A stretch of DNA of 64,000 bases from Candidatus Beckwithbacteria bacterium (GCA_026397255.1 JAPLVF010000013.1:9481-73480); one strand, 5' to 3'. Shown: positions 2,728-19,607, numbered from the stretch's first letter. Numbers and translations are program-made. Notes: generated by a model from the letters alone, not told the origin.

Positions 2728-3792
2728 TTATTTTAACCGCAAATGGCAACAACCGACACACTGAGTCCGGAATTTTCCCGCCTTAATCTGTTGCCGGAAC
2801 CTTCGGTAAACGGAATTATTCCACAACTTCATAAACGGAGTGTCTAAAACTGAGCCGATTTTTAAGTTAAAACAGGGGTAGACATCGCCGAAAGGAGAAA
2901 TCCTCGCCAAATGAAAGATTTTATTACAATAAAGACGGCTTAAATCGACTTTGCCGGAATAATAATCAACAACTTCTGGTAAAGACAGGCTGGGCGAGAA
3001 ACTTAATCTAACGCCAAGTTTTTCAGCGGTTATCATGGCCAACTGCAAGCTTTTTGCTAATTTTGTTTTGGGAAGTTTTAAAAGTTTCTGACAGTAATCT
3101 ATTTTTAAATGTCGTAAATTTGGATGTAAATCGTAGCCGGAACGATCTAAGGACGGGTCAAGCAGCTGAAAGTTAAGCCAGTCAACTTTTAAGTCTTTGG
3201 CCAATTTAACTGTTTGATCCAAGAGTGGATAGTTTTGCGGTAAAATTAAAGAATTCATTGTAATCGTCGGCGTTGGTTTATTCTGTTGTTGTTTTTCCAG
3301 CTGAATCAGCTTTAAACTATGCAGTGTTTTTTTAAAACTGCCTTTGCCCCGACCTTGGTCATGAATCGCCGCTGTCGGTCCGTCAAGGGAAAACATCAAG
3401 GTATCCAAATCGAAGCTAATCAAAGCTTTAATCTGCTCTTTAGTAGCGGCGGTTAAGTTGGAAATCATGCCGACACGGTGCTTTTTCTTAGCATAAGCAA
3501 CAATGGTTAAAATATCTTTATGAATTAACGGCTCACCACCAGTAAAAGACAAAGCAGTTTGAGCGGGAACCTGATCAATGACTTTTAAAATTTCCAGAGT
3601 TAATAACTGTTTCCGTCGGGTAATTTTTTTCACCACTTCTTCCTGACGCAGATAGCAAAAAGTGCAGTTTAAATTACAGCCATAAAGGATTTCAAAAACC
3701 ACATTGATGGGAAATGGCGACCAACCGTTAGGCCAAAAAGAGAAAAATTGCTCGTAAACCGGGGCTAACTTTCTTTTAATTACTTGGAGCAT
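2728..3792 (-). CDS. radical SAM enzyme with C-terminal SPASM/twitch-like Cys cluster
   Basis: CNLNCTFCY (CxxxCxxC) near the N-terminus. C-terminal cysteines YCNK...YPCF...CVGCCH suggest an auxiliary Fe-S domain. Confidence 0.8.
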   Translation of the reverse strand: MLQVIKRKLAPVYEQFFSFWPNGWSPFPINVVFEILYGCNLNCTFCYLRQEEVVKKITRRKQLLTLEILKVIDQVPAQTALSFTGGEPLIHKDILTIVAYAKKKHRVGMISNLTAATKEQIKALISFDLDTLMFSLDGPTAAIHDQGRGKGSFKKTLHSLKLIQLEKQQQNKPTPTITMNSLILPQNYPLLDQTVKLAKDLKVDWLNFQLLDPSLDRSGYDLHPNLRHLKIDYCQKLLKLPKTKLAKSLQLAMITAEKLGVRLSFSPSLSLPEVVDYYSGKVDLSRLYCNKIFHLARISPFGDVYPCFNLKIGSVLDTPFMKLWNNSVYRRFRQQIKAGKFRTQCVGCCHLRLK

Positions 3793-3881: not shown

Positions 3882-4658
3882 TCATAAGGATTTTTTAATA
3901 ACTATTCTAAACCCGGTTGATTCATTAATATTTTGGCCGGCTTTGGCTTTTTTATATAAAGCAATTTTTGAGTATAAGCGCAAAGATAATCCGCCCAATA
4001 AATCAATAAAGCCGATCCAAGGTGAATCATAAGTCACCGCTCTGAGGCTGATAATGTCAAAACCGGCTCTTTTAAGGATATTTTTAGCCTGAGCTAAAGA
4101 ATACTCAATTTTATGGTCCGGGTCGGCAAACGGGTTTAAGCCGACTTTTTTTTGCAGCTGCTTCCAGGAAGTATTGAGATTAGGAATAGCAATAAAAGCC
4201 AAACCCCGGGGCTTTAATAACCGCCGAATTGAGGCTAATAACTGATTTCGTCTAATAATGTGCTCTAAAACATCCAAGCAAAGAATTTTGTCAAATGACT
4301 GGTCTTTAAATTTTAATTTTTGCTCTAAATTAAATTGTCTAAAAACAACATTGGTAATATGCTTATCAGCGGCGGAATTTCTAGCAATGGTGAGTTGTTT
4401 TCGGTCATAATCCAAACCGATAATTTTCCGGCATTTAACGGCAGTCTTTAAAGTGTGCTGACCGTTATGACAGCCAAGGTCCAAAACCACATCCTGCCGG
4501 TTAATATCCGCCAAATACCAGAGCGGCTCGATGTTAATCAAATGTTTTGGGTGAATGGCATATTTACTTTTACCGGTAAGCTGCACCAGTCTCATGGAAA
4601 CAGCGGACAGGACTTTAGTTTTTTTTATTAACCAAACAAAAGGATAAAGTAATTTCAT
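3882..4658 (-). CDS. class I SAM-dependent methyltransferase
   Basis: Motif I VLDLGCHNGQ and motif ILCLDVLEHI of Methyltransf_11/12-like proteins. Confidence 0.7.
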   Translation of the reverse strand: MKLLYPFVWLIKKTKVLSAVSMRLVQLTGKSKYAIHPKHLINIEPLWYLADINRQDVVLDLGCHNGQHTLKTAVKCRKIIGLDYDRKQLTIARNSAADKHITNVVFRQFNLEQKLKFKDQSFDKILCLDVLEHIIRRNQLLASIRRLLKPRGLAFIAIPNLNTSWKQLQKKVGLNPFADPDHKIEYSLAQAKNILKRAGFDIISLRAVTYDSPWIGFIDLLGGLSLRLYSKIALYKKAKAGQNINESTGFRIVIKKSL

Positions 4659-5836
4659 GTTAAGCGGCGATAAAGAGCTAAATACTGGTTAATAATTTGT
4701 TGGCGGTTAAAGCGTGTTTGTAATAATTCTAAACTTTTTTGGGAAAATTGTGTTGTATTTTTCATGGCCTTAACTAATGCCTCTGCCACCTGGTCAGGTT
4801 TTTCCGGATCAACTAAATAACCATTGTCTTTCACCAGCTCCTGGTTACCACCGCGATTGGAGGCGACGATCGGTAAGCCGAAACTTAACGCTTCCAAGCC
4901 GGCGCGGGACAACGGTTCCGGCCAGCGGGAAAGAATCGCAAAGGCACTTGCCTGTTCATATAATTTCAAAGTTTGCTCATGGCTTAACTTGCCTAAATAT
5001 TTACAGTTCTTGGGAAACTCGGACTTAAAACTGGGGTTAATGTTACCGCAAAAAATAAATTGGTATTGAGGTAATTGTTCGGCGGCCTTAATTAAACAAT
5101 CCGTACCTTTGCCAAAAGACAACTTTCCTACTGATAGAATCATCCTTTTATTCTGGCTATAGCCCTGAGTTTGTCGGGGGCCATGGCCCTGAGCTTGTCG
5201 AAGGGGAGGCAAATTGTAAATCCAACTAACTTTTTTTACTCCATTATCCTGGTAGATTTTAGCTAACTGGGGCGAAACCGCAATTACTTGCTGGCAGCGG
5301 TTTAAAAACCACTTCAGTTTATACTGCCATAACTTGGCCAGAACCAGTTTCCACTTGGCCGTTCCGCCGTATCTTGACTGATATTCAGGAATCTCTTTAT
5401 TAATGTAATAGCCAAAACCACATTTTTTTTGCTGTTGGGTAAAGCATAAGGCTAAAGGGCATAAAAACTTAAAGTCGCGCACCGTCGCTACCACCGGCTT
5501 ATGGGTCAGCCAGCCAGCTAAAACTGCTCCGGGTAAAATATACTTACCGTGAACATGAATTAAGTCAATCTTTTTTTGCCTGATAGTTTTAATAATAAAA
5601 TAAGCTGAATAAAACCAGAAAAAAGGATTATTAAACCAAAGCGGCGATAAAATCCGGCCGGGTTTAATTTTTTTAGGAAAGGGGAATTTTAAATCGGGTG
5701 ATCGACCGCCTAAGTCAGGCGACAAAATAACCACTTTAATCCTGCGGCGTAGGCCTTCGGCTAAAGCGTGCAGGCTGTATTCAGCGCCGGAAACAGCATG
5801 CGGATAAGCGTATTCACTTAAAAAAATAATATTCAT
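4655..5836 (-). CDS. glycosyltransferase family 4
   Basis: RWPEPLSRAGLEALSFGLPIVAS GT4 C-terminal motif. ATGA overlap with the neighbouring gene. Confidence 0.8.
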   Translation of the reverse strand: MNIIFLSEYAYPHAVSGAEYSLHALAEGLRRRIKVVILSPDLGGRSPDLKFPFPKKIKPGRILSPLWFNNPFFWFYSAYFIIKTIRQKKIDLIHVHGKYILPGAVLAGWLTHKPVVATVRDFKFLCPLALCFTQQQKKCGFGYYINKEIPEYQSRYGGTAKWKLVLAKLWQYKLKWFLNRCQQVIAVSPQLAKIYQDNGVKKVSWIYNLPPLRQAQGHGPRQTQGYSQNKRMILSVGKLSFGKGTDCLIKAAEQLPQYQFIFCGNINPSFKSEFPKNCKYLGKLSHEQTLKLYEQASAFAILSRWPEPLSRAGLEALSFGLPIVASNRGGNQELVKDNGYLVDPEKPDQVAEALVKAMKNTTQFSQKSLELLQTRFNRQQIINQYLALYRRLT

Positions 5837-6585
5837 TTTAAAAGAGTGATAAAATTTTGTCCGCCTTTAATTCTTCCAGAACCATCAGAAACATTTTTAT
5901 AAGATGTGCCTGTGGCTAAGATTTTAAAGCCAAGTTTGCGGCAAATTTGTTTCATTTTGGAAACACGAATGACTAGGCTGGTTTGATTGACAGGAGCGGT
6001 AGTAATTTCTTTATAGCCTTTAAGGAAAAAGCGGATTTGATCCAGGGGATTTAATTTTGAAAATTTACCAAAATACAATTGAGCCACTCCGCCAACTTTA
6101 AGACAACGACGGGTTTCTTTAAGATAACTAGTTAAATTCTCATAATTTGGCAAGTGTTGAAGGACAATAAATGAATAGATAAAATCAAGACTGTCGGAAG
6201 CAACAGCAATTGAACAACCGGAGGTGGTAAGAAGTTTAAAATTTGTTTTACCCTGAGAGGTTAAAAATTTAATAACGGTGTTTTTTTCTTCATGAATGTC
6301 AATACCAACCACTTGTTTAAAATAACTACAGGCAGCATTAAGAATTCTCCCCCCGCCATAGCCTATTTCTAAAGCAATTTTTTCTTCGGGATTGTTAAGA
6401 TGTCTACAGACCGTTTGAGTGAGAATATGAAAAGTTAAATCCCAATAACCTCTCTTGATTGATTCATTAATATCTTTTGATTTATCAAACCACGCCTGAA
6501 ATGCAGCCATGCCTTTTTTTTTACTGGCTTTAATGGCTTGGCTGTATTTTTTTCTATGCTTAATTAAATCTGAAGACTGACTCAT
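5833..6585 (-). CDS. class I SAM-dependent methyltransferase
   Basis: LEIGYGGGRILN glycine-rich motif I and acidic motif II (FIVLQHL). Confidence 0.65.
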   Translation of the reverse strand: MSQSSDLIKHRKKYSQAIKASKKKGMAAFQAWFDKSKDINESIKRGYWDLTFHILTQTVCRHLNNPEEKIALEIGYGGGRILNAACSYFKQVVGIDIHEEKNTVIKFLTSQGKTNFKLLTTSGCSIAVASDSLDFIYSFIVLQHLPNYENLTSYLKETRRCLKVGGVAQLYFGKFSKLNPLDQIRFFLKGYKEITTAPVNQTSLVIRVSKMKQICRKLGFKILATGTSYKNVSDGSGRIKGGQNFITLLK

Positions 6586-7682
6586 AATTGATTAAATATC
6601 TTTAGCTGAGTTTTAATATTTTTCCTCCAAGTGAATTTATTAATAACATATTTTAAGGCTATTTTGCCCATTTTTTGCCGTAAATCCGGTGATTTAATTA
6701 ATTGAAGTATTTTTTCCACCCAATCATTAACATCCCCTGGTTTAGCTAAAAATCCTGTTTGGCCATCTTGAATAATCTCTCTTATTGAAGAATTATTATT
6801 GCCAATCACCGGGATACCACAGGCGCCGGCTTCAGTCAAAGTCATACCAAAACCTTCTTTTGAAGAAGGTAAAACCAGAATGTCAGCTAAACGGTAAAGT
6901 AATACTTTGTCAGATTCCGGAACAAAACCGGTAAATTTGACTCTATCAGTTAAACCTAAATTCTGAACCTGTAATTTTAATGATTTTTCCAATGGGCCTG
7001 TGCCGGCATAAATTAAAACTGTGTTTTTGTTGCCAATTTTGTCTAAAACTGTTAGTAAAAATGCCGGATTCTTCCGCTGTTTTAACCCACCGACAAATAA
7101 AATCACGAAATTACCTGCCAAATCCCAGTGATCAATAAGTTTTTGGGGTTTTGGACCAGGCTGGAATTCCTTGCCAACGCCATCATAAATTACAGAAATT
7201 TTTTCTTCCGGATAGTTTAATCTTGTAATAATTTCGTTTTTAGTAAAATGGCTAACGGCAATAAGGTGATCAAAATTCCTGATGACGATTTTATCAATTA
7301 AGTGATTAATACCCTCTTCCAGGTGATGATAGGTAGCGATAACCGGTACCTGAGGATAAAGTTTTTTAAAAACGCTGGCAGCCGGACCGACAAAATAAGG
7401 GTTATGGACGCGTAAAATATCAAATTTTTCTGCTTTATAAGTTTTAATTAAATACGGCAGGACAAAAGCAGAAAATACATGGGGCGGAAACATGGGTTTA
7501 ATCGGGGCATATGCTACAGTTAAGTTTTTGTGTTTCAGATATGGCCGGTTTTTGGGCAGTAAGCTGAAAACTTTAACCCCTGCCTGGCAAAGCCGGTTAA
7601 TTACTTCCCGGTCATAAACTTCCCCGCCGGAATTACTTTCCGGACTTAATCCCAGCTCTGGTGAACAAATTTTTAAACCCAT
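6582..7682 (-). CDS. glycosyltransferase family 4
   Basis: SSKEGFGMTLTEAGACGIPVIG GT4 motif. Confidence 0.8.
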   Translation of the reverse strand: MGLKICSPELGLSPESNSGGEVYDREVINRLCQAGVKVFSLLPKNRPYLKHKNLTVAYAPIKPMFPPHVFSAFVLPYLIKTYKAEKFDILRVHNPYFVGPAASVFKKLYPQVPVIATYHHLEEGINHLIDKIVIRNFDHLIAVSHFTKNEIITRLNYPEEKISVIYDGVGKEFQPGPKPQKLIDHWDLAGNFVILFVGGLKQRKNPAFLLTVLDKIGNKNTVLIYAGTGPLEKSLKLQVQNLGLTDRVKFTGFVPESDKVLLYRLADILVLPSSKEGFGMTLTEAGACGIPVIGNNNSSIREIIQDGQTGFLAKPGDVNDWVEKILQLIKSPDLRQKMGKIALKYVINKFTWRKNIKTQLKIFNQL

Positions 7683-7705: not shown

Positions 7706-8356
7706 TTAATCTTTAAATGTTGCGCTGGCATTACCGTACAAAACCTGGCTCTTATAATTACTCCAAAGCCAGCGGCTAACATATCTTCTCCGGTACGAAG
7801 CAGTAGCGCTAGTCATTTTTCGGTAATTTTTCAGCATCGCTTGCCTGGACCGATCCTGCGCTTGCCGGGCGGTTTGCCCTTTTATTAGAGTAGTAACCAC
7901 TAAGTTTGACGGTACAAGAAATAATTTAGCCATTGAATCAGTCAATGGCCTAGTGCGTTTATCGGAATCATAGCCTAAAATAAATTTTTGGTTATAACCG
8001 ATAAAGGCTTTAGCTCCCTCTTTGATTAATACTTTACCCAAAGTAATCCCGGCATCACAGCTCCGGGCATAAATGATTGTTCCGGCCACTGCCGATTTTT
8101 TGCCGGTTTCCAAAAGCGGTTCAAAATCCTGACCGGTAATGGTTGTGCTATTGCCATGACCGTTCAAAAACAGAATCGCGGGCTGGTTAGATTTAAGACA
8201 ACTGTCAAAATTCTTTTTATTGGCCTTCTTTCCGGCCAAGTCATAAACAGCGAATAATTTTTGTTTGGCGGCTTTGATTACCAAAGTTGACCAATAATAC
8301 AAATAGTTAGTTGCCTCATCATGATTGGATCTTGTTACCAGAAGTGATTTACTCAT
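7706..8356 (-). CDS. hypothetical protein with a possible caspase-fold (clan CD-like) His/Cys dyad
   Basis: Ordered LFLNGHGNS ... IYARSCDAG segments resemble the His then Cys catalytic dyad order of clan CD peptidases. Weak, motif-level only. Confidence 0.4.
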   Translation of the reverse strand: MSKSLLVTRSNHDEATNYLYYWSTLVIKAAKQKLFAVYDLAGKKANKKNFDSCLKSNQPAILFLNGHGNSTTITGQDFEPLLETGKKSAVAGTIIYARSCDAGITLGKVLIKEGAKAFIGYNQKFILGYDSDKRTRPLTDSMAKLFLVPSNLVVTTLIKGQTARQAQDRSRQAMLKNYRKMTSATASYRRRYVSRWLWSNYKSQVLYGNASATFKD

Positions 8357-8743: not shown

Positions 8744-8744
8744 G

Positions 8745-8764
8745 TAAAAAATTATAGCACAAAA
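8745..8764 (-). promoter_or_regulatory. putative promoter of the long leftward operon
   Basis: On the minus strand, GTGCTATAATTTTTTACATGG with a perfect TATAAT lies just upstream of the ATG at 8743. It sits immediately 3' of a copy of the island boundary motif. Confidence 0.3.
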
Positions 8765-8794
8765 TTTTACTTTACTTCCCGGCTCTTTTCACTT
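8765..8794 (-). repeat. boundary motif copy 1 (plus strand TTTTACTTTACTTCCCGGCTCTTTTCACTT)
   Basis: Identical 30-mer recurs at 10662-10691 and in shortened form at 12894-12918. Each copy sits at the 3' end of a minus-strand gene. Confidence 0.7.
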
Positions 8795-10661: not shown

Positions 10662-10691
10662 TTTTACTTTACTTCCCGGCTCTTTTCACTT
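10662..10691 (-). repeat. boundary motif copy 2
   Basis: Exact 30-mer TTTTACTTTACTTCCCGGCTCTTTTCACTT in the 38 bp gap between convergent genes. Confidence 0.7.
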
Positions 10692-10698
10692 GTTCTCT

Positions 10699-11307
10699 TT
10701 AATTTTCAAATATCATTTTCTTGTAAATTTTCCGGGTAGTCTCGACATCTTTTTCGCAGTACTCACAGATTTCTTTAATCCGGCCAGCTTGATAAGCCTT
10801 AGCCACGTCTTTACCTTCGATTTCCCCTTCTTTAGGGCTGGGAATGCCTAAAACCTTAGACAGCGCGTGCAAAGAAATTTTACTTTGCAGATTCCATTTG
10901 CTCCACTCGCACATAATGTCAAAGATGGGAAAGTTACGGTAGCGGGCAAAGTTTAAGTCTTTGCTGGGCTTAACGCCTAAAATAACCGATCTTTGGTAAA
11001 TAAACCTTAAATCAAAGTCCATCAGATTAAAGCCAATAAATAAATCCGCATTTTTGGCAATAGCCCAAAAATCCGTCAGCATTTTCTTTTCGTCTCCGGA
11101 AAGAGTTTTCACCGCTTCGTCATTAACGGCATAAGAAATGCAGGCGATGCGGCCGTAAGACCCGTCCAGTCCGGTGCTTTCGACAAACTCTTCAAAAGTT
11201 CTTGGGGTATATTTACTTCTTCTTTTCCTCTTATAAATATCTTTGAGGATCTCCCTCATTTCTTCCCCTGACGGCAAAGTTTCAATATCTAAGTAGAGTT
11301 TAGTCAT
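10699..11307 (-). CDS. DnaQ-like 3'-5' exonuclease, PolB-exonuclease-domain-related
   Basis: Exo I YLDIET, Exo II-like GFNLMDFDL and Exo III-like YCEKDVETT motifs in a ~200 aa protein. Confidence 0.6.
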   Translation of the reverse strand: MTKLYLDIETLPSGEEMREILKDIYKRKRRSKYTPRTFEEFVESTGLDGSYGRIACISYAVNDEAVKTLSGDEKKMLTDFWAIAKNADLFIGFNLMDFDLRFIYQRSVILGVKPSKDLNFARYRNFPIFDIMCEWSKWNLQSKISLHALSKVLGIPSPKEGEIEGKDVAKAYQAGRIKEICEYCEKDVETTRKIYKKMIFEN

Positions 11308-11374
11308 ATTTAAATTTTACTACTAATTATTACCTTTAGTTGATCTTTAAACCACTATTCTATATATTCAAGTC

Positions 11375-11986
11375 ATGAAATATGATGAGATGTTTAATAA
11401 AGTAAGGAATTTGGAATTTGATACAGAAATGTCTGTTTGTAAATCTCATGATACGGAACTTTATTTGCTTAGACCATCTGTTCTCTCCAAGAGATTTTCC
11501 ACATATAACGTAAAAAAGAATTTTCAAATATGGCTTAGAACTGTTGCAAGAAATTTTAGACCTAATCATCTTAGGGTTTTTATTGATTTAAACTTAAGGG
11601 TAAGAAGCAGACCAGATTTAAAGGAAAAAATGTTAGTTGCCTTTGATGACATTTTCTACGGTAAAGATCCTAACGAGGTAATTCAGGGTTTGAAAAAAGA
11701 AAAATTTGAACATTTTTTGAACCCAATTGAAATAATTGCTAATTTGTCACAACTTTTCATAATTGAGCAGGCTTACTCATACAACAAAGAAAGCAATTTT
11801 GACCCTCCTACGCTTTTTTACCAAGGATGGATAAGGCAAGTTTTAGATGATATTAAAGAAATTGATAATTTGTGTATGAGTATTTCTAGGGGTCAACCTG
11901 CAGCAGCAAAATATACATCGAAAGAAAATAAAAAAAGTAATAAATTCCAGGCTAAATTAAGGCCCTTGTGGTATATTGAGGCATAG
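11375..11986 (+). CDS. hypothetical protein, candidate restriction endonuclease partner
   Basis: AT-rich ORF convergent with, and overlapping by 35 bp, the DPPY DNA methyltransferase. Possible PD-(D/E)xK-like FDD...E.K segment. No direct homology recognised. Confidence 0.35.
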   Translation: MKYDEMFNKVRNLEFDTEMSVCKSHDTELYLLRPSVLSKRFSTYNVKKNFQIWLRTVARNFRPNHLRVFIDLNLRVRSRPDLKEKMLVAFDDIFYGKDPNEVIQGLKKEKFEHFLNPIEIIANLSQLFIIEQAYSYNKESNFDPPTLFYQGWIRQVLDDIKEIDNLCMSISRGQPAAAKYTSKENKKSNKFQAKLRPLWYIEA

Positions 11987-12812
11987 AATAGTTTTCTTTC
12001 ACTAATCTAAGCTGTTTTTTCTCAAGATTGGATTTTAGCTCTTCAAATCTTTGTATTGATAAATCTAAATACTGTTTTTCAGTGTCAATTCCAATAAATT
12101 TTCTTCCATATAAATAAGCGGCTAACCCCGTAGTGGAACTGCCGGTAAAAGGATCAAGGATTAAATCACCCTTTCTAGTACTGGCTAAAACTATTCTTTT
12201 AAGCAAGTCTATAGGTTTTTGAGTCGGATGTTTTCCAAATTTTTTCTCAATCGGTTTAGGCGTATTAATTGACCAAACTGATCTCATTTGCAAGTTCGCT
12301 TTTTTTAATTGGTCTTCCGGCCAATTACCATCTTTCATCAATTTATAGTTAAAGATGTGTTTACCTTCTTTGTCTTTTCTGGCCCAAATTAGGGTTTCGT
12401 GGCTAGCGGTAAAAAAACGGCAGCTTAAATTTGGAGAGGCATTCGGCTTAAACCAAGCAATATCGTTTAATATGTGAAATTTATTAATTTCTAAGGCCAG
12501 ACCGCATTGATAAATGGAGTGATAAGTTCCACTTACCCAAATAGTTCCATTGGGTTTTAAAATCTTTTTACATAGCTTTAACCATTCTCTATGAAATTCA
12601 AAATTTTTCTTTGTTCCATTACTTAAATCCCAGTCTCCTTTTTTTACACTAACCATTTTCCCGTTTTGGCAGGTGAAACTGCCGCTGGAAAGAAAATAAG
12701 GCGGGTCGGCAAAAATCATATCCACGGAATTCTCCGGAAACTGACTCAAGAGTTTTAAAGAATTACCCAAGTAAAGCTCAAAGTTTAGTTTTTCGTAGTA
12801 AGGTTTTAACAT
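11952..12812 (-). CDS. DNA methyltransferase, N6-adenine/N4-cytosine, beta-class
   Basis: Motif IV IFADPPYFL precedes motif I ILDPFTGSSTTGLAA, the order typical of beta-class amino-MTases (N4/N6 methylase domain). Confidence 0.85.
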   Translation of the reverse strand: MLKPYYEKLNFELYLGNSLKLLSQFPENSVDMIFADPPYFLSSGSFTCQNGKMVSVKKGDWDLSNGTKKNFEFHREWLKLCKKILKPNGTIWVSGTYHSIYQCGLALEINKFHILNDIAWFKPNASPNLSCRFFTASHETLIWARKDKEGKHIFNYKLMKDGNWPEDQLKKANLQMRSVWSINTPKPIEKKFGKHPTQKPIDLLKRIVLASTRKGDLILDPFTGSSTTGLAAYLYGRKFIGIDTEKQYLDLSIQRFEELKSNLEKKQLRLVKENYSMPQYTTRALI

Positions 12813-12893
12813 ATCTTTATGGGATCGGGTTTTATTTGTATATCTTCATTAAGAACCCTTTGGCAAATTTTGTCAACAACTACGTACTTATTA

Positions 12894-12918
12894 TTTTACT
12901 TCCCTATTCTTTTCACTT
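12894..12918 (-). repeat. boundary motif copy 3 (degenerate: TTTTACTTCCCTATTCTTTTCACTT)
   Basis: Shares TTTTACTTCCC and TCTTTTCACTT with copies 1 and 2. Lies between the ImmA stop and the MTase start. Confidence 0.6.
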
Positions 12919-12926
12919 ATGATGGC

Positions 12927-13421
12927 TTAATTCCAATTAGCTAATTTATCGTATAGCTTGGTTTCTTTTAATCTCCACATCATCATATCTTTACTTACCC
13001 AGTAATTTTTTGCTAATTCACTCCAAGATAAAGAGATAAGCCGTTCCGCTTTTATCAATTGTAAAGGCACTAATAATTCGGCGGCAAATTTATTAGCGGC
13101 CACCTCATCGGGATTTTTATTTGAAAAGTCTATTGTTCTGAAACCAGAATTATGCCCCATTAAAATATGCCCCAATTCATGAGCGATCGTATACCTTATC
13201 CTTGTTTCAGGTTTTTTATTATTATATATAATCTGAGTCGTTCCAACACTAAAACCATCCTCATCACCTAAATCTTTGCCTTGAACGGAAATTTTAAAGT
13301 CTACTTGTTTTAAAATTAAGTTTAGTCGAATTGGGGGAATTTTTTGAACACTTTGCTTAATAAGATTTCTGGCAAGTTTTAAAGCAAATCCATTGTCATT
13401 TGGTTCATCTTGAAAATTCAT
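12927..13421 (-). CDS. ImmA/IrrE-family zinc metallopeptidase
   Basis: HELGHILMGH HEXXH motif in a ~160 aa protein immediately downstream of, and overlapping, an XRE HTH gene (COG2856-type arrangement). Confidence 0.8.
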   Translation of the reverse strand: MNFQDEPNDNGFALKLARNLIKQSVQKIPPIRLNLILKQVDFKISVQGKDLGDEDGFSVGTTQIIYNNKKPETRIRYTIAHELGHILMGHNSGFRTIDFSNKNPDEVAANKFAAELLVPLQLIKAERLISLSWSELAKNYWVSKDMMMWRLKETKLYDKLANWN

Positions 13422-13737
13422 CTTTTGAAAGCCTTATGGCTTCATTAATGGCTTTATTAAATTTTGGGTTTTTAAGGGCCTTTTTCGAAGCACGGAAAGA
13501 AATATGAATTGATGGAACGCTAAAACCTTCAATTAATTCTTTCAGACTAACCTGTAATTCTCTAGCAATCTTGGATAACGTTCCAAGATTATTGATTTCT
13601 CTCTCGCCACTTTCATAAAGAGCGATTAATGAGGTAGAAAGTCCAAGTTTATTCCCCAACTCCTGTTGTGACGCCCCGACAGCTTCCCTTGCTTCTTTTA
13701 TGTTTTTCCCAATTTTTTTGAAATTTAACTCCATCAT
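13405..13737 (-). CDS. HTH XRE-family transcriptional regulator
   Basis: IKEAREAVGASQQELGNKLGLSTSLIALYESGER helix-turn-helix segment. Confidence 0.85.
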   Translation of the reverse strand: MMELNFKKIGKNIKEAREAVGASQQELGNKLGLSTSLIALYESGEREINNLGTLSKIARELQVSLKELIEGFSVPSIHISFRASKKALKNPKFNKAINEAIRLSKDEFSR

Positions 13738-13759
13738 GCTAGAGTTTAAACCAAAGTTG

Positions 13760-13815
13760 AAAATTTGTCAAATCTGCTTGTTGACTTTGTAAATATTTTT
13801 GTTACAATACAGACA
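13760..13815. promoter_or_regulatory. divergent promoter/operator region between the XRE gene and the payload genes
   Basis: TTGACT -35, 16 nt spacer, TACAAT -10 on the plus strand. The -35 is overlapped by an inverted repeat TTGTCAA-N9-TTGAC. Confidence 0.4.
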
Positions 13816-13841
13816 TAGTTACTAATTATTTTAATTTAATT

Positions 13842-14207
13842 ATGGGTAAAAGTTCAGAATCTAGACGTAAAAATGAACCGGTCGTTAAATCTCGGGGGTC
13901 AACGGGAAGTTATGCCGCCAGTGGTGGTAATAATTCTATTAAACAAGACTGTCTGTTTAGTCTAAAATTTGAGCAAAAAGTCCCTACTCTCATGACTGTA
14001 ATAGTTGGTCAATACGCTGTTTTGTTGCCGGATAATTCCAATCTTTACCTAAACGTGATTATTGACGGTCAAAGTGCCGGAAGATATTCAGGTAAAATGA
14101 GCAAAAAAGTAATTAAGTGTATTAGCGAGGGCTTTGTTTACGAAGGTAAGGTCATCTCTATTAAGGATAGCTCCCTGGCAGTAATCGAAGTTAAGGGCCG
14201 TGGATGA
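13842..14207 (+). CDS. hypothetical protein (121 aa)
   Basis: First gene divergent from XRE/ImmA. Stop overlaps the next start (ATGGATGA). Confidence 0.55.
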   Translation: MGKSSESRRKNEPVVKSRGSTGSYAASGGNNSIKQDCLFSLKFEQKVPTLMTVIVGQYAVLLPDNSNLYLNVIIDGQSAGRYSGKMSKKVIKCISEGFVYEGKVISIKDSSLAVIEVKGRG

Positions 14208-15186
14208 AAAAATTACAGATCAGTTAGAATTTTGGGGTCTCAATGGTTTATCAACAGCGCGCATATCCGGTTGTCCAGTCGTTGATTATTTAGATGATTG
14301 CGACAGCGCTTGTTATCCAACAAAACCTTCAAAGTACGAAGCGCTGACGTGTGGCAGCAAAAAAGGGGCTCAATTTTTGGGAGACGCAAGGGGGGCGACA
14401 TTAAACAACATTAAAGCGTTGAGGGTAAAAATTCCAAAACTGCCAATTTTCATCCCGGAATTACAACATGGTAGCAAGTACTTAGTTAATAATACTAAAT
14501 TAGATTGGGTGGCAGTCAAAATTGACGAAGTTGTGTCAAAACATGATTTAAAAGTTGCCGCTGATATTCGTAAAAGAATAGGAATCGATTCAAAAACAAA
14601 AGTACTATTACTTGGTTACGGATCCGACCGGTTTTTAGAGAATTTATGGACAAACAGGAAGAAAATCTTTCCTCAAATCGCCAGCTTGAAAGCGGATCTT
14701 TACACGGCCATTGACTATTCAGTTTTTCTCGTTCACCCACACCTCGAGAGAGTTCTTAACGTTAAAAGAAGTTTGGTGACTTTTGATATTTTACAAAGGC
14801 TAGGAGTTCCGGTCGTGCCGCATATTTATTGGAGCGGGGAAAAAGACATGAAAAGATGGGCGTTCTGGCTGAACCAAAATTCTGGAGTAAATTTAGTGTC
14901 CATGTATTTAGGTTGGATTAGAAAAAGCGAATGGGTGAAAATATTTTCAGAGCTTAAGTGTCTAAATAAATCGCTTGAGAGAAAAATAAATTACTTGATA
15001 AGCGGGCCGGGCAATTTAACAGAAATAAAACCGTTAAAAGAAATTCTCGGAAACGTAATTTTAACAGACGCAGAATGTGCCTTGAATGCGGCACATCATA
15101 AATTAAGTCAAAATAAATTAAAAGTTACTTACTATCCATTCAAGGAAAATTTAGATTACCATACAGAATTAGTAAAAGCCGCATAA
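14200..15186 (+). CDS. hypothetical protein (328 aa)
   Basis: Translationally coupled to the 121 aa ORF. No motif I can assign with confidence. Confidence 0.55.
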   Translation: MDEKITDQLEFWGLNGLSTARISGCPVVDYLDDCDSACYPTKPSKYEALTCGSKKGAQFLGDARGATLNNIKALRVKIPKLPIFIPELQHGSKYLVNNTKLDWVAVKIDEVVSKHDLKVAADIRKRIGIDSKTKVLLLGYGSDRFLENLWTNRKKIFPQIASLKADLYTAIDYSVFLVHPHLERVLNVKRSLVTFDILQRLGVPVVPHIYWSGEKDMKRWAFWLNQNSGVNLVSMYLGWIRKSEWVKIFSELKCLNKSLERKINYLISGPGNLTEIKPLKEILGNVILTDAECALNAAHHKLSQNKLKVTYYPFKENLDYHTELVKAA

Positions 15187-15201
15187 GGGGTGAGCAACCT
15201 G

Positions 15202-15267
15202 TGATAAGATAAATTTATGAAAAAAGTGATGGTGACGGGGAGCGGAGGGTTCATTGGAAGACAGCTG
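15202..15267 (+). pseudogene. duplicated epimerase promoter/5' end, copy A (MKKVMVTGSGGFIGRQL then stop)
   Basis: TGATAAGATAAATTTATGAAAAAAGTGATGGTGACGGGGAG... nearly identical to the true epimerase start at 17987-18045. Reading frame terminates after 17 codons. Confidence 0.7.
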
Positions 15268-15280
15268 TAGGACGGAAGCA

Positions 15281-15735
15281 CTATTTATAACTAGCAGGAC
15301 AGTTTTTTGCCTTGGTAAAACCGGCTTTACGGGCTTCGGCTTCGGTGCAGAACCAACTATCGCCGTTGTGCAATTGAACATCAACCTTGTTGTAGTAACC
15401 GCAGCCAGGAAAATAATAGGTCATTTCGCCGCTGTTCTGACTGATATCAGCAGAATTTAGTTTAATGTTGCCTTTTATTTGACAATCCGAATTTTCCGGG
15501 TTAAACCTTTGAGTGCAGAGTTCGCTAAAGACCCCCAGTTTGGCCGCCCTGGCTTTTTTGGTGGCCGGCAATTAAAGCCGCCTTATTCCCGCCATATTGA
15601 CTATGAACTTCCGACCAACCAGATGCCAGCATGTTTTCATCGACAGAACCGTCTTCAGTATAAACAAGAGAGATTAATCGGCTAGAATCGCGATAAACGA
15701 CCTTGAGATAAATGTCTTTATTTGGATTTTTTGGC
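15281..15735 (-). pseudogene. thermonuclease (SNase-like) remnant with Cys-rich C-terminal domain, frameshifted and N-terminally truncated
   Basis: Upstream frame encodes LISLVYTEDGSVDENMLASGWSEV, like the SNase C-terminal half. The 96 aa ORF in another frame encodes CQIKGNI...YYFPGCGYY...WFCTEAEARKAGF. A T6 run lies at the frame junction. Confidence 0.5.
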
Positions 15736-15777
15736 TCTTGCGGCAGGCATTACTTAATTGTAACTCAAGTGCAGAAA

Positions 15778-15808
15778 TCAAGTTGTGTTAAGATAAGGAG
15801 TGTTGATG
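15778..15808 (+). repeat. partial copy A' of the epimerase upstream sequence
   Basis: ATCAAGTTGTGTTAAGATAAGGAGTGTTGATGAA versus ATCAGTTGTGTGATAAGATAAGTTTATGAA at 17971-18000. Confidence 0.5.
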
Positions 15809-15812
15809 AAGG

Positions 15813-16277
15813 TTATTTTCTCTTACTTAATGACTTAACGATTAAATTTTGAGCCACAGCCGGATCTATGTGATCGGCTTTAATGAAAAGAATTTGGCGT
15901 TCAGGAAGATATTTCTCAGGCAAAAACCGCCAAATCATAGCAGGATCAATTTTAAACTCTGCTTTGGTATCAATAGGGATAATCGAATCGCCTTGCTGCG
16001 AAAGCCCGAGATCGCCTAATATAGTGTGAAATCCTAAACTCAGGTCATTGATTAATGAACGCCAGTTTTCCCGCTCTTGAAACGTAACCGGACTAACCAG
16101 AAAATAATATCCGGGGCGGGCTTTTATTTTCTGAGCGTCTTCAGGTTTACTCAGATCACAAAAACTAATTTGTTTTTCGCCAATTGCACCAATTTCCATA
16201 ATTGAAAGAACGGTGGTTACTCGCGAGGTTTTTCTGCCTGGATGGAATAATTTATCCCAAGTTTCTTTAAAAGACAT
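15813..16277 (-). CDS. hypothetical protein (154 aa)
   Basis: Second gene of a two-gene unit bounded by epimerase-5' repeat copies. No recognisable domain. Confidence 0.55.
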   Translation of the reverse strand: MSFKETWDKLFHPGRKTSRVTTVLSIMEIGAIGEKQISFCDLSKPEDAQKIKARPGYYFLVSPVTFQERENWRSLINDLSLGFHTILGDLGLSQQGDSIIPIDTKAEFKIDPAMIWRFLPEKYLPERQILFIKADHIDPAVAQNLIVKSLSKRK

Positions 16278-16298
16278 AGATTTCGGGCAGACGGGGAA

Positions 16299-17090
16299 TT
16301 ATACCAGGTTGGGGAAGAGAAAGCCTTTGATATCTAAAAAGTCAATTTTTTTATCCTTGACAAAAATCCTGTCTTTACCACTGATATCAATTTGCCTGGG
16401 AACATAAATTAAGCCGTTAATTTCCCTTAAATCATCCGGTAATACTTGTTTCTTTCGGGAAAAAGCTGAAAGTTTATCGGTAAAATCCTTCAGCGGACTC
16501 ATCCTTTGTCGATGTAAAGCATAACTCGATTCTTTTGGTTTAACAAACAACTTTAAGATGCTTAATTTTGTTTGCTTATTTTGCTTCTCTACTAATGCCT
16601 CTAAGCGAGCTTGAGTATCATCCTTTTCCAACATTGGATTGGCGCCGCTTAAAATTAATAAACCTTCGTTATCCCCAATCACTGTTTTAACGCCGGTAAA
16701 AAATTTCCTTAATTTGAGAACGGCTTGTTTCATTGAATGAAATCTGCCTTCTCTAAATTCAATCGGCTGGTGAAGGCCAACAGCATTACCATGGTTATCT
16801 TTGGCCAACATCAGGGCGCAAAAACTGGCACCATGTATAAAAATTACGGCCGGATCTGTTTCAGTGGAAATAATATTCTCAGAATCTTTGATTTTTTCAA
16901 ATCCGGGCGTGGTTTCATAGACAGTCGGATCTGCCGAGCGAACCTTAAAGCCACTTTTAGGCAAAGATTGCTGTAAATTTTCCGGAGAGGCGTAAGCAAT
17001 TGTGGTATCAAATTTTTTTAGGACATCAAGTATAGGAGAAGGTTCAAGCGTTTGGGGTAAACCCCGGTTAATTTCAAAAAAATCCTGCAT
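16299..17090 (-). CDS. hypothetical protein (263 aa)
   Basis: First gene of the two-gene unit. No recognisable domain. Confidence 0.55.
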   Translation of the reverse strand: MQDFFEINRGLPQTLEPSPILDVLKKFDTTIAYASPENLQQSLPKSGFKVRSADPTVYETTPGFEKIKDSENIISTETDPAVIFIHGASFCALMLAKDNHGNAVGLHQPIEFREGRFHSMKQAVLKLRKFFTGVKTVIGDNEGLLILSGANPMLEKDDTQARLEALVEKQNKQTKLSILKLFVKPKESSYALHRQRMSPLKDFTDKLSAFSRKKQVLPDDLREINGLIYVPRQIDISGKDRIFVKDKKIDFLDIKGFLFPNLV

Positions 17091-17100
17091 ATTTATTATA

Positions 17101-17157
17101 TGATAAGATAAGTTTATGAAAAAAGCGATGGTGACGGGGAGCTCGGGGTTTATCTAA
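17101..17157 (+). pseudogene. duplicated epimerase promoter/5' end, copy B (MKKAMVTGSSGFI then stop)
   Basis: 53 nt almost identical to 17981-18033, then divergence and a TAA stop. Confidence 0.7.
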
Positions 17158-17243
17158 AGACACCTGATAGAAAGACTGAAAAAGGAAAAGTTTAAGAAAT
17201 TTGTCAATAGCCGCTTGACAACGTGCTATAATGAAATTACATA

Positions 17244-17311
17244 GACCCTGTTTCTGAATTGTCACCGTAAGGTGCGCGTTCTCAACTAACGTTGAGATAG
17301 GAACCAGGGTC
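17244..17311. other. structured RNA-like element (long closing stem with two internal hairpins, one with a GNRA loop)
   Basis: GACCCTGTTTCT pairs with AGGAACCAGGGTC, enclosing CACC-GTAA-GGTG and TCTCAAC-TAAC-GTTGAGA hairpins. Lies 3 nt beyond the DUF3800 stop on the minus strand. Confidence 0.3.
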
Positions 17312-17314
17312 GCT

Positions 17315-17938
17315 TTATTTAAACGGCCAAATATCTTCAATTCTTCTTGACCTTTTAAGCATAGTTAAATAATCAGAATCTTTTTTTGTAAAGTCAGAGA
17401 ACACTGCCCCAGCTACCATATCAGCCAGTTGAATCAGCGTGTTTTGTCTTGAATCCACAAACTTTAAATCTTTAAAGATTTTACTGTTCTTATTGTCTAA
17501 ACGCCTGGATAAATAAACTCTTAACTGATTCCTTAGGGTTCTCTCTCCTCTTTTATCAACTTTCAATTTTGCGTTTTTTATTGATCCGCCGCTTTGTTTC
17601 AAAACCTGCATGATTACATAGTTATAAAAATCTTCTTTATTGCTTCTTAATCTTTGGCTGCGAATTAATGCTTTGTTAACCATAATGGCTCTAACCCTAA
17701 ACTTAAATGATCTGATAGCGTTGAAAAAGGCTTTGCGAAATTTTCTGTTGGTTTTATTGAACTTAAATTCGTATTTATCTTGTAATTTCAGTTTTCTCCT
17801 TAGTTCTTTAATTGCCACCGAGGTCTTTTCTGCTTCCAGGTTGTCATTGAAAATAACTAAGGCCAACACAAAAATATCGCTTGAGCCTTTTTGGAGCTTA
17901 AAACCTGGATCTCCGGATTCGTCAATAAAAACTATCAT
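17315..17938 (-). CDS. DUF3800 family protein
   Basis: N-terminal MIVFIDESGDPGF matches the conserved iY/F-IDESG start remembered for DUF3800 proteins. Confidence 0.65.
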   Translation of the reverse strand: MIVFIDESGDPGFKLQKGSSDIFVLALVIFNDNLEAEKTSVAIKELRRKLKLQDKYEFKFNKTNRKFRKAFFNAIRSFKFRVRAIMVNKALIRSQRLRSNKEDFYNYVIMQVLKQSGGSIKNAKLKVDKRGERTLRNQLRVYLSRRLDNKNSKIFKDLKFVDSRQNTLIQLADMVAGAVFSDFTKKDSDYLTMLKRSRRIEDIWPFK

Positions 17939-17995
17939 TAAATTATTTTATCACCTAAGGCCTGAAAAATATCAGTTGTGTGATAAGATAAGTTT

Positions 17996-18856
17996 ATGAA
18001 AAAAGCGATGGTGACGGGGAGTTCGGGGTTTATTGGGAGAAAACTGATCAAGAGATTACAAAAAGACGGGGTGGAGGTAGTGGGGTTTTCTAGAAAAGAG
18101 GGGAAAAATATCACCAAAAAGGAAGATTTTGCGGGGTTGGGAAAGGTGGACACGGTGTTTCATCTGGCGGCAGTGTCGGGGTATAAGGACTGTGCGGAAA
18201 ACACCGGTTTGGCGTATGAGGTGAATGTGGGCGGAACAACTAATGTTTTAGAATATTGCCGGAAAAGCAAGGCAAAATTAATTTTTCCCAGCACGTATGT
18301 TTATGACCAGCCTTATTCAGAGGTGAAAACGGAAACGAGTGCGACGAAGCCGACGACGCATTATTCTTTCACGAAATTCTTAGGCGAAGAACTCTGTCGT
18401 TTTTACACGCGGGTATTTAAAGTGAACAGTTTGATTTTACGAACAGCCAATGTGTTCGGATTTGGCCAAGAAGACAAGTATTTGGTGCCGATTATCTTTA
18501 ATAATATTCTGGCAGGCCGAGAGTTTGAGCTGACCAAGCCGGAAATTGAACGGAGTTTTATTTATATTGCTGATTTGGTGGAGGCTTATGTCCGTCTGGC
18601 AGAAGCGAATAGCGAAAGCGGAGAAACATATAATATCGGACCGGAGAAGCCAACAACTTTGCAGGAATTGGTGCAGGCGATGGAGAAGGTAACCGGAAAG
18701 AAAGCCCGGGTAAAATATTCCGGCCAAGAGCGGCCAAATGAAGTGAATTTAAACCGGGTGGATACAGGTAAGATGAAAGCAAAACTTAACTGGCAGCCGG
18801 AAATCAGTTTAGAGCAGGGATTAAAACAATATCTGGAAAAACTTCATGAAGTTTAA
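17996..18856 (+). CDS. NAD-dependent epimerase/dehydratase (extended SDR)
   Basis: GSSGFIGRKL Rossmann motif and YxxxK (YSFTK). This is the intact copy of the repeated 5' end. Confidence 0.85.
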   Translation: MKKAMVTGSSGFIGRKLIKRLQKDGVEVVGFSRKEGKNITKKEDFAGLGKVDTVFHLAAVSGYKDCAENTGLAYEVNVGGTTNVLEYCRKSKAKLIFPSTYVYDQPYSEVKTETSATKPTTHYSFTKFLGEELCRFYTRVFKVNSLILRTANVFGFGQEDKYLVPIIFNNILAGREFELTKPEIERSFIYIADLVEAYVRLAEANSESGETYNIGPEKPTTLQELVQAMEKVTGKKARVKYSGQERPNEVNLNRVDTGKMKAKLNWQPEISLEQGLKQYLEKLHEV

Positions 18857-19607
18857 AAAAACAGCATTGTCCGGTTACTATACTGACCAATATTTTAAAT
18901 CCCGGGTAAACAAGCAAAAAACTTTACGCCAAGCAGACCCGGCAATTTTCCAAAAGGTCGCTCAATTTATCAACTTAACCGGCCCGGTTGGCGATATTGG
19001 CTCTGGGGCAGGAAATTTTCTTAAAGCCTGCGAGACAAGAGGCATTAAAGCAATTGGAATTGAGGGCTGCAAAGCCGCCGTGCTCTGGGCCAATAAAAAT
19101 TCTAATAACAAAACTATCCGGCATGATTTAACTAAAAAACTGCCTTTTAAAGACAATTTTTTCCAGCTGGTGCAAAGCAATTCAGTCGTGGAACACTTAA
19201 AACCAGCCGCGGCCGACCAGGTGATCGCTGAAGCTTACCGAATTCTTAGGCCGCAGGGCCTTTTTGTTTGCAGCTGCCCGAATTATTTTGACTGGGCAGA
19301 AAGATTCCCGGAACATATTAACCTCTATACGCCGACAAGATTAAGGCAAGCGCTGAAAAAGCATAAATTCCAAATAGTTTATGAGCATTTCAGCTTCAAT
19401 TTGTCATTACTCACTCCCTGGGAGAGATTTAAAGAGAATGTGCCGACCGGAAAGTGGCGCCTGATGACGAAAAAAAACTCAAGGTTAATTAATTTAATTT
19501 TGGCGCCAATCTGGCTGCCGGTAAGACTCATTAATAAATATATTTTAAACTGGGAAACATTAGATATTGTGGCAGGAGAATGTTATTTTATCGGCCGGAA
19601 AAATTAA
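18846..19607 (+). CDS. class I SAM-dependent methyltransferase
   Basis: DIGSGAGNFL motif I. Overlaps the epimerase stop. Confidence 0.65.
   Translation: MKFKKTALSGYYTDQYFKSRVNKQKTLRQADPAIFQKVAQFINLTGPVGDIGSGAGNFLKACETRGIKAIGIEGCKAAVLWANKNSNNKTIRHDLTKKLPFKDNFFQLVQSNSVVEHLKPAAADQVIAEAYRILRPQGLFVCSCPNYFDWAERFPEHINLYTPTRLRQALKKHKFQIVYEHFSFNLSLLTPWERFKENVPTGKWRLMTKKNSRLINLILAPIWLPVRLINKYILNWETLDIVAGECYFIGRKN

Follow-up and report, generated by a model that had tools for sequence, protein, structure and literature searches.

Integration at the 5' end of a protein-coding gene, with delivery of a replacement promoter and N-terminus, is known for SXT in prfC and for the dusA islands (PMC8409611). In these systems the element gives the part upstream of the core, and the stub beyond the core is element DNA (PMC8409611). 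Homology-facilitated illegitimate recombination was put forward as the mechanism that builds the orphan arrays of the Vibrio type VI secretion system (T6SS), rhs and cdi loci (PMC5361080). This process, anchored by homology on one side, was shown by experiment in Acinetobacter, Streptococcus, Pseudomonas and E. coli (PMC3240628; de Vries & Wackernagel 2002 and Prudhomme et al. 2002, cited in PMC5361080). The stretch analyzed here, called the window, is 64,000 nucleotides (nt) of a 358,919-bp contig from a metagenome-assembled genome of Candidatus Beckwithbacteria, which belongs to the Candidate Phyla Radiation (CPR, or Patescibacteria). It contains an epimerase gene that is preceded by truncated copies of its own promoter and start, with unrelated genes between them. 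An earlier note, made from the sequence alone, had explained this pattern by repeated site-specific insertion at the 5' end of the gene, each event bringing a replacement gene start. The present analysis finds the observation largely right and supports repeated acquisition with a replacement start; the site-specific reading is not supported. The explanation favored here, at about even probability, is serial replacement of the epimerase allele, with each incoming allele carrying a new block of genes.

Displaced epimerase starts and the ancestry of the flanks

The repeat unit consists of the promoter, the start codon, and the first codons of the Rossmann motif. Repeat finding identified a 98-nt family at 15190-15287, 17089-17186, and 17969-18066, and a 40-nt probe from the epimerase start (GATAAGATAAGTTTATGAAAAAAGCGATGGTGACGGGGAG) matched at 15203, 17102, and 17982 with 2, 0, and 0 mismatches, compared to no matches in 100 shuffles. 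The copies are called c1 to c4 from left to right, c4 being the start of the intact gene, and positions within them are counted from the ATG. In local alignments c1 (15200-15267) is about 85% identical to c4 (17979-18046) over 68 nt, and c3 (17089-17186) is 81% identical to c4 (17969-18066) over 98 nt. The earlier note had counted four copies. Three of them are confirmed (15200-15267, 17089-17186, and from 17979 on), while the one at 15778-15808 is much weaker and is a relic of a promoter only. The alignment of the copies that the note proposed gives the same result: c1 and c3 align well to c4, but the score of c2 against c4 only equals the best of 200 shuffles, with a match of about 28 nt that lies upstream of the ATG (-31 to -4).

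The similarity between copies changes abruptly along their length. From -17 to +35, c3 and c4 are identical at 51 of 53 positions, while from +36 to +98 only 31 of 63 positions agree (Fisher p for the step, 7e-9). For c1 and c4 the corresponding values are 41 of 43 from -17 to +25 and 17 of 25 from +26 to +50 (p = 0.004). The three copies c1, c3, and c4 have a nearly identical stretch of 43-53 nt in common, with the same left bound (-17/-19), and they have the same codon choices (GCG/GTG ATG GTG ACG GGG AG), in which they differ from the more distant relatives L001-L020. Copies c1 and c3 are also alike in codons 15-17. The right-hand ends differ, lying at +51 in c1, -4 in c2, and +72 to +99 in c3.

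The short open reading frames (ORFs) of the displaced starts are as first read, with 17 codons followed by a stop in c1 (MKKVMVTGSGGFIGRQL) and 13 codons followed by a stop in c3 (MKKAMVTGSSGFI). Beyond codon 13, c3 is not DNA of an inserted element. It continues in the epimerase frame of another allele: the peptide RHLIERLKKE matches residues 15-24 of protein P0154 at 10 of 10 positions and the resident gene at 6 of 10, and 13 of the 19 distal residues match P0154 compared to 8 of 19 for the resident epimerase. These matches indicate that the distal part of c3 derives from another allele of the epimerase that occurs in nature. A local duplicate that decayed neutrally would not yield such a mosaic copy. 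In the case of c2, positions 15722-15796 align over 75 nt (score 55) to positions 3145-3219 of the related locus L003, which is the intergenic region between a thermonuclease gene and the epimerase gene. The homology stops directly after the -10 box (TAAGATAA), so c2 is a remnant of the promoter region and not of a coding start. It is a true relic, without a convincing coding part.

The truncated copies c1, c2, and c3 are found upstream of c4 and the epimerase gene, on the same strand as these, with three different gene blocks in between. An array of truncated, one-sided, and co-oriented copies that bear such blocks is the arrangement of a sequential-displacement array. Two further features of such arrays are found here. 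Fragments come from alleles other than that of the intact gene, as in the distal part of c3 and in a stub at another locus, L026 (see below), and the ancestry of the flanks conflicts.

Epimerase-based scans of genomes and metagenomes gave 25 loci for comparison, and a protein search gave the best relative, L052, at 79% identity; an exact-protein look-up of the epimerase returned no identical record. In distant relatives the orthologue of the family GT4 glycosyltransferase gene at 6582-7682 directly adjoins the epimerase gene. In closer relatives the gap is filled by about 100 nt (L018), by helix-turn-helix (HTH) and ImmA genes (L002), by HTH and thermonuclease (SNase) genes (L003), or by a gene for a 101-amino-acid (aa) protein and a DUF5674 gene (L052). 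This variety marks the glycosyltransferase-epimerase interval of this Beckwithbacteria lineage as a hotspot for accessory and defence genes. Of the two things that the earlier note had proposed to look for in related genomes, different genes in the gap were found, but a true empty site was not; neither an empty site nor a donor was seen among the 25 loci and L052, the closest of which has 79% amino-acid identity.

On the left flank, p216 (7706-8356) is 88-90% identical to its counterparts in L002 and L009. The epimerase is only 70-72% identical to those of L002 and L009 and 79% identical to that of L052, which lacks p216, while the epimerases of L002, L003, L006, and L009 are 81-87% identical to each other. 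The identity matrices of p216 and the epimerase thus disagree, indicating from sequence comparison that the two flanks of the island differ in ancestry and that the locus is a mosaic. L052 also has the proximal sequence of the epimerase start (43 of 45 nt identical, the gene as a whole being 76% identical), so the near-identity of the proximal segment among the copies needs no special explanation. Special selection on the proximal 45 nt (-16 to +29) was considered and rejected; this is the best window in the comparison with L052 but not an outlier, as another 45-nt window has 42 of 45 identical positions.

Most of the orthologous loci have an extended -10 box, TGnTAAAAT or TGnTAAGAT, 5-8 nt before the epimerase ATG, and the epimerase mRNA is probably leaderless. 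Many genes have TGnTAnnAT 5-8 nt before the ATG without a Shine-Dalgarno sequence, both in the window (17979-17998, 17938-17960, and 8744-8764) and in L002, L003, L027, and L052. These start regions suggest widespread leaderless transcripts in this lineage. The genes in the blocks are all on the minus strand, and each has its own promoter-like -10 box. The 263-aa ORF has a predicted promoter (TTTTCA-16-TATAAT), the -35 box of which lies within c3.

Gene blocks and the surrounding island

The features between 15200 and 18856 are listed in the table. The earlier note had placed a thermonuclease remnant, a pair of ORFs of 154 and 263 aa, and a structured element with a DUF3800 gene between the copies, and all of these are confirmed; the element is the DUF3800-IX RNA.

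Table. Features of the epimerase side of the island, in window coordinates
Feature	Position	Strand	Basis and details
c1, oldest displaced epimerase start (proposed order)	15200-15267	+	Extended -10 box (TGTGATAAGAT), ATG 15217, 17 codons then stop; repeat finding, probe, alignment, tblastn of MKKVMVTGSGGFIGRQL
Possible extension of c1	to about 15277	+	Weak similarity to c3
Thermonuclease (SNase) pseudogene	15281-15750	-	Comparison with the intact 238-aa protein of L003
c2, ancestral thermonuclease-epimerase intergenic region, promoter-only remnant	15751-15797	+	Alignment to the L003 spacer
154-aa ORF, no family hit	15813-16277	-	Stop codon 12-16 nt from the end of c2
263-aa ORF, no family hit	16299-17090	-	Start codon 10 nt from the left end of c3
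c3, displaced epimerase start	17099-17213	+	-10 box, ATG 17116, 13 codons, TAA stop
Diverged epimerase frame of c3 after the stop	to at least codon 24 (17187), possibly codon 33 (17213)	+	Match to P0154
DUF3800-IX small RNA (17244-17315) and its promoter (CTTGACA...TGCTATAAT)	17214-17315	+	Rfam RF02968
DUF3800 protein gene, 207 aa	17315-17938	-	PF12686; extended -10 box (TGATAAAAT) 6 nt before the ATG
c4 and intact epimerase gene	17962-18856	+	ORF 17996-18856, 286 aa, PF01370 E 1e-42
Leftover intergenic region of c4	17962-17995	+	Extended -10 box (TGATAAGAT) 6 nt before the ATG

The thermonuclease pseudogene keeps the start codon and residues 1-9, lacks residues 10-92, and has a frameshift near 15565; over residues 145-237 it is 73% identical to the L003 protein. 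The earlier note was right that it is a thermonuclease remnant. It is not a free cassette, as a thermonuclease gene lies beside the epimerase gene in L003 as well. Since c2 corresponds to the orthologous L003 spacer between these two genes, this block would have arrived, or existed, as a unit of thermonuclease, spacer, and epimerase.

Neither ORF of the second block has a Pfam, NCBIfam, or PADLOC hit. The 154-aa ORF has 28 representatives in 1.84 billion proteins, mostly of 140-170 aa, and its single-sequence structure model was unusable (pLDDT 41). The 263-aa family has 12 members that are 46-60% identical, with invariant Cys91 and His107. The model of the 263-aa protein (pLDDT 76) has 2f9z_C as its best Foldseek match, a weak one (E 7e-3) that resembles CheD, NTAN1, and CNF1, and by this model the protein may be a Cys-His amidohydrolase. 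The two ORFs were considered as a traveling cassette. This was rejected, since homologues of the 263-aa protein are found in unrelated housekeeping-like contexts without the 154-aa partner.

In the third block, the DUF3800-IX covariance model scores 64.1 bits, compared to a gathering score of 36.8, and the DUF3800 ORF matches PF12686 (E 5e-19) and the PADLOC type PDC-M04A. The protein has 947 homologues, which come from several CPR groups and are 64-87% identical among the 120 best listed. DUF3800 has been described as a domain with an RNase H fold, and eleven RNA motifs, unrelated to each other and of unknown function, are associated with it (PMC10910872, PMC5737381). The DUF3800-IX RNA converges with the DUF3800 gene and adjoins its stop codon, and L026, L027, L030, L035, and L036 have the same pairing with the same convergent layout. 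Such a layout is reminiscent of a toxin-antitoxin pair with an antisense RNA or of a nuclease with a guide RNA.

Comparison of seven contexts (the window, L026, L027, L035, L044, L045, and L051) defines a compact module of about 750 nt that includes a leaderless-type promoter, the ORF, the RNA, and the RNA promoter (17214-17958 in the window). The sites are unrelated and often lie in restriction-modification or defence neighborhoods. The unit ends at CTTGACA in four contexts, and L026, L027, and L051 have the same RNA and the same module end. This definition of the pair as a unit with fixed ends at many sites is useful for finding its role.

One of these contexts provides a parallel to the window. 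In L026, a contig from another sample with a DUF3800 protein that is 82% identical, positions 4662-5830 contain an intact gene for a 91-aa membrane protein, the DUF3800 gene, the DUF3800-IX RNA, and a 5' stub of the 91-aa gene (L027 4564-5760 was compared as well). The stub is followed by a thermonuclease gene and then by a type I restriction-modification system, and the orientations relative to each other are as in the window. The stub has the 60-nt indel state of a short allele that is intact in L027, suggesting that it was displaced from a different allele and that L026 is an independent parallel to the array at the epimerase gene. No flanking repeat is present in the five other contexts, which shows that the module is not what makes the duplication. 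Target-site duplication by the module was rejected on this ground and because both existing stubs are of foreign allele types.

The island as a whole occupies about 10 kb between the GT4 gene and the epimerase gene. It contains VanW, YkuD, a DEDDh-type exonuclease, a type II methylase with a candidate restriction enzyme, ImmA and HTH proteins, a DUF4417-like gene, and the three blocks next to the epimerase gene. Outside of 7.7-18 kb, nearly all of the scanned ORFs are related to glycan and cell-envelope biosynthesis (glycosyltransferases, PMT-like membrane proteins, epimerases, and a flippase). The remainder of the island, at 10699-15186, resembles a defence island. It encodes a DEDDh protein similar to the PolB exonuclease, an ImmA/IrrE protease with an XRE-type HTH protein (CapP-like hit), and a pair of 121-aa and 328-aa proteins with a sub-threshold DUF4417 hit. 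The candidate restriction enzyme is a 203-aa ORF without a family hit that is convergent with the type II N6/N4 methylase gene and overlaps its 3' end.

A second repeat family is found in the left half of the island, which it divides into blocks. The sharply bounded 30-nt repeat TTTTACTTTACTTCCCGGCTCTTTTCACTT occurs at 8765-8794 and 10662-10691 (30 of 30 positions identical) and at 12889-12918 (25 of 30). The copy at 8765 begins exactly where homology to the left flank of the relatives ends. Each copy overlaps a stop codon or lies 0-8 nt beyond one, and the genes concerned (VanW, exonuclease, and ImmA) are on the minus strand. No structure was found in the repeat, and no match to it was found in the related loci or in viral contigs. 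A viral origin of the repeats was rejected, as exact-pattern scans of viral contigs found no match for either repeat family.

Two observations were made at the right side of the island. A gene for a 253-aa methyltransferase (18846-19607) overlaps the stop codon of the epimerase gene and sits between it and a convergent GT2 gene. It is missing there in all of the close relatives, in which GT2 directly follows the epimerase gene, and it may be another insertion. In addition, the epimerase gene has, at 17800-18800, an unusually strong G-over-C skew on the coding strand (+0.25 to +0.36) and G-ending codons, unlike its neighbors and unlike the orthologues of the relatives. The skew (about +0.3) was considered as a sign of foreign origin, but it could not be made into evidence.

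Origin of the array

The explanation that is given about an even chance of being correct is serial, epimerase-anchored allele replacement with illegitimate joins on the island side. DNA from related strains would have been taken up several times, each time carrying a different accessory block directly upstream of its own epimerase allele. The right crossover would be ordinary homologous recombination in or beyond the epimerase gene. On the left side, where there is no homology, an illegitimate join would occur within the first 100 nt or so of the resident epimerase gene or in its promoter. By this process of homology-facilitated illegitimate recombination, or sequential displacement, every event would bring a new block, promoter, and gene start, and the old start would be pushed to the left as a dead stub, yielding c1, c2, and c3. 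The repeats, the differing end points, the mixed-allele c3, the conflicting flanks, the apparent lack of a recombinase, and the parallel at another locus are observed; the order of events, the route of uptake, and the illegitimate joins are inferred. Experiments on Saccharibacteria, another group of Patescibacteria, have shown natural competence with homologous recombination (PMC10633639). Two elements of the earlier note agree with serial allele replacement and are supported: genes were acquired successively beside the epimerase start, each acquisition leaving an older promoter and 5' fragment, and the current gene start came with or beside the newest block.

Several points weigh against this explanation. 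No duplicated epimerase starts or remnants were found in the relatives (20 related loci searched). Each block starts no more than 12 nt from a gene end, and every block boundary either coincides with the conserved end of the DUF3800 module or is 0-16 nt past a stop codon. If illegitimate joins were random, most of them would be expected to cut inside genes in a genome this dense in genes, so the boundaries hint that the cassettes have defined ends or were trimmed later. In c3 the Gly14 codon has been replaced by TAA, which takes 2-3 substitutions in one codon and is not predicted. The 30-nt repeat looks more like an attachment site. Homology-facilitated illegitimate recombination is reportedly orders of magnitude rarer than homologous recombination (PMC5361080; PMC3240628), and three such joins are many for a stretch of about 120 nt at a single gene start. 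This count is subject to ascertainment bias, however, since joins farther upstream delete DNA and leave no trace. The searches turned up no donor or recipient strain above 79% amino-acid identity. The unexplained boundaries, the TAA codon, the density of joins, and the 30-nt repeat leave a small but real probability for a cassette-type mechanism.

Site-specific integration, the first such mechanism, is quite unlikely. A recombinase encoded elsewhere would use the promoter and start sequence of about 45-53 nt as an attachment site, the blocks would be integrase-less mini-islands or cassettes, and each internal copy would be a hybrid site, comparable to SXT in prfC, the dusA islands, or an integron-like array. 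The nearly identical common segment of c1, c3, and c4 with its constant left bound is consistent with this, as are the boundaries that hug gene ends in the manner of integron cassettes and the second, exact 30-nt repeat that delimits further blocks. The conservation of the segment in L052, where it is the best 45-nt window of the gene, could also be taken in its favor, but it is no outlier. The crossover core is not the same at every junction. The right-hand ends vary, c2 ends before nearly the whole putative core, and c3 to the right of the core is a genuine fragment of an epimerase allele, while the known 5'-end integrators supply the upstream part and not the downstream part. Their stubs beyond the core are element DNA, which does not match c3. 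Searches of the block ORFs with Pfam, PADLOC, and NCBIfam gave no integrase, resolvase, or transposase domain, and a Pfam scan of all but two (3882-4658 and 4655-5836) of the window ORFs of at least 120 aa revealed no recombinase or transposase. There are no inverted repeats. Single-strand DNA folds of c1, c2, c3, c4, and r1-r3 were no more stable than those of shuffles (z of -0.08 to +2.2), and c1, c3, c4, and r1 were less stable, as expected for a leaderless start and unlike attC sites. An attC-like or Xer/dif-like structure was therefore rejected, with no hairpins in the folds and no dyad symmetry on inspection. Neither the attC imperfect palindromes of an integron array nor an IntI gene beside the array with a common promoter was found. 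The DUF3800 module is also present at unrelated sites in six further contexts. Copy c4 does keep the target intact, with a replacement extended -10 box, N-terminal codons, and the full 286-aa ORF with its Epimerase domain, and this is expected under the recombination model too. A more general and improbable form of the idea is an active cassette-accretion process of CPR bacteria that places defence modules with tight ends beside leaderless promoters. Its agent may be a trans-acting recombinase, or else the DUF3800 protein, which has an RNase H fold and would use its small RNA as a guide, and both repeat families, the epimerase-start copies and the 30-nt repeat at 8765, 10662, and 12889, may be attachment-site scars. 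If true, the process would resemble an integron system but would have neither IntI nor attC.

Single crossovers of the Campbell type are unlikely as well. Circles with one block and about 50-115 nt of the epimerase start, formed in the donor by recombination between direct repeats, would be integrated by RecA with duplication of the short homology. Direct repeats do flank each block, single crossovers of circularized incoming DNA are documented (PMC3240628), and the hybrid c3, with its resident-like proximal part and foreign distal part, could reflect a crossover within the common segment. The 53 nt in common between c3 and c4, at 96-98% identity, are enough for a rare RecA event, but the homology is very short. 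The junction between epimerase codon 24-33 and the DUF3800 module still calls for an earlier illegitimate event, and the circles account neither for c2, with its weak similarity of about 28 nt to c4, nor for the agreement of the thermonuclease block with the ancestral gene order. A purely local history is very improbable. It would involve tandem or segmental duplication of the epimerase start, independent insertions, and gene conversion of the proximal 45-53 nt, and it would fit the lineage-specific codon choices of all three copies and the similarity of c1 and c3 in codons 15-17. The distal part of c3 is closer to the other allele than to the resident gene, the proximal sequence in L052 makes gene conversion unneeded, and the conflicting phylogenies of the flanks and the L026 stub, which is clearly of another allele type, also oppose it. 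An assembly artefact, to which the contig could be prone as a metagenome assembly with a strain-variable island, is unlikely and has the lowest probability. The common sequence of about 50 nt would be a natural branch point in the assembly graph at which strain variants could be threaded into a chimera. No exact common run reaches 30 nt and the near-identical stretch does not exceed 53 nt; in the judgement made here, the usual assemblers end with k-mers longer than this. The sequence at each junction is unique, a mixture of strains does not explain the junction of c3 to the module, and the independent L026 contig has the same architecture.

Overall the locus appears to preserve a legible history of the growth of an accessory and defence island, at a hotspot of recombination in an ultra-small bacterium that is uncultivated. 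It suggests a way for defence modules, such as DUF3800 with its small RNA, to enter CPR genomes, namely homology-anchored uptake from relatives that needs no dedicated enzymes of mobile elements. In metagenomes such uptake could then be searched for by its signature of displaced gene starts, and the locus is a lead on the mobility of the DUF3800/small-RNA module.

Comparison with known systems

The SXT element in prfC and the dusA islands resemble this locus in their insertion at a protein-coding 5' end, the stub of the old start, and expression of the gene from a new promoter and start. They differ in being 20-100 kb long, with a tyrosine integrase, a directionality factor, and one fixed core, while the blocks in the window are 0.5-1.3 kb, with no integrase found and with variable end points. 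The earlier note had likened the pattern to the duplication of tRNA gene ends by genomic islands. This is a fair analogy, but integration at a protein-coding 5' end with a replacement start was already known (PMC8409611). Integron arrays and the accretion of islands at tRNA genes are similar to the window in that small, packed blocks have repeated sequences between them and the newest lies by a fixed promoter site. In contrast to integrons, the window has no IntI and no imperfect palindrome of the attC type, its repeats are copies of a gene start and not of a tRNA end or a recombination site, and the genes in its blocks read away from the fixed site using their own promoters.

Sequential displacement anchored by homology fits the pattern better. 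In homology-facilitated illegitimate recombination, too, one homologous anchor and an illegitimate join on the opposite side import foreign DNA by a conserved gene. The process was shown by experiment in Acinetobacter, Streptococcus, Pseudomonas, and E. coli, while here it is deduced from the sequence. The nearest known parallel is the orphan arrays at rhs, cdi, and T6SS loci. The arrays of rhs, cdiA, and the Vibrio T6SS likewise consist of an intact gene and a one-sided, co-oriented stack of truncated copies with imported genes interleaved (PMC5361080). Their fragments come from different alleles, there is no integrase, and new modules enter at a conserved anchor, pushing older ones away from it. 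In those arrays, however, the anchor is the 5' part of the gene, and the displaced parts are useful 3' toxin tips with immunity genes. In the window the part that serves as anchor is the body of a sugar epimerase with a housekeeping role, and what is displaced is a promoter with 5' stubs that have no obvious use. The cargo also differs, consisting of unrelated small defence-like modules, and the host is a CPR bacterium.

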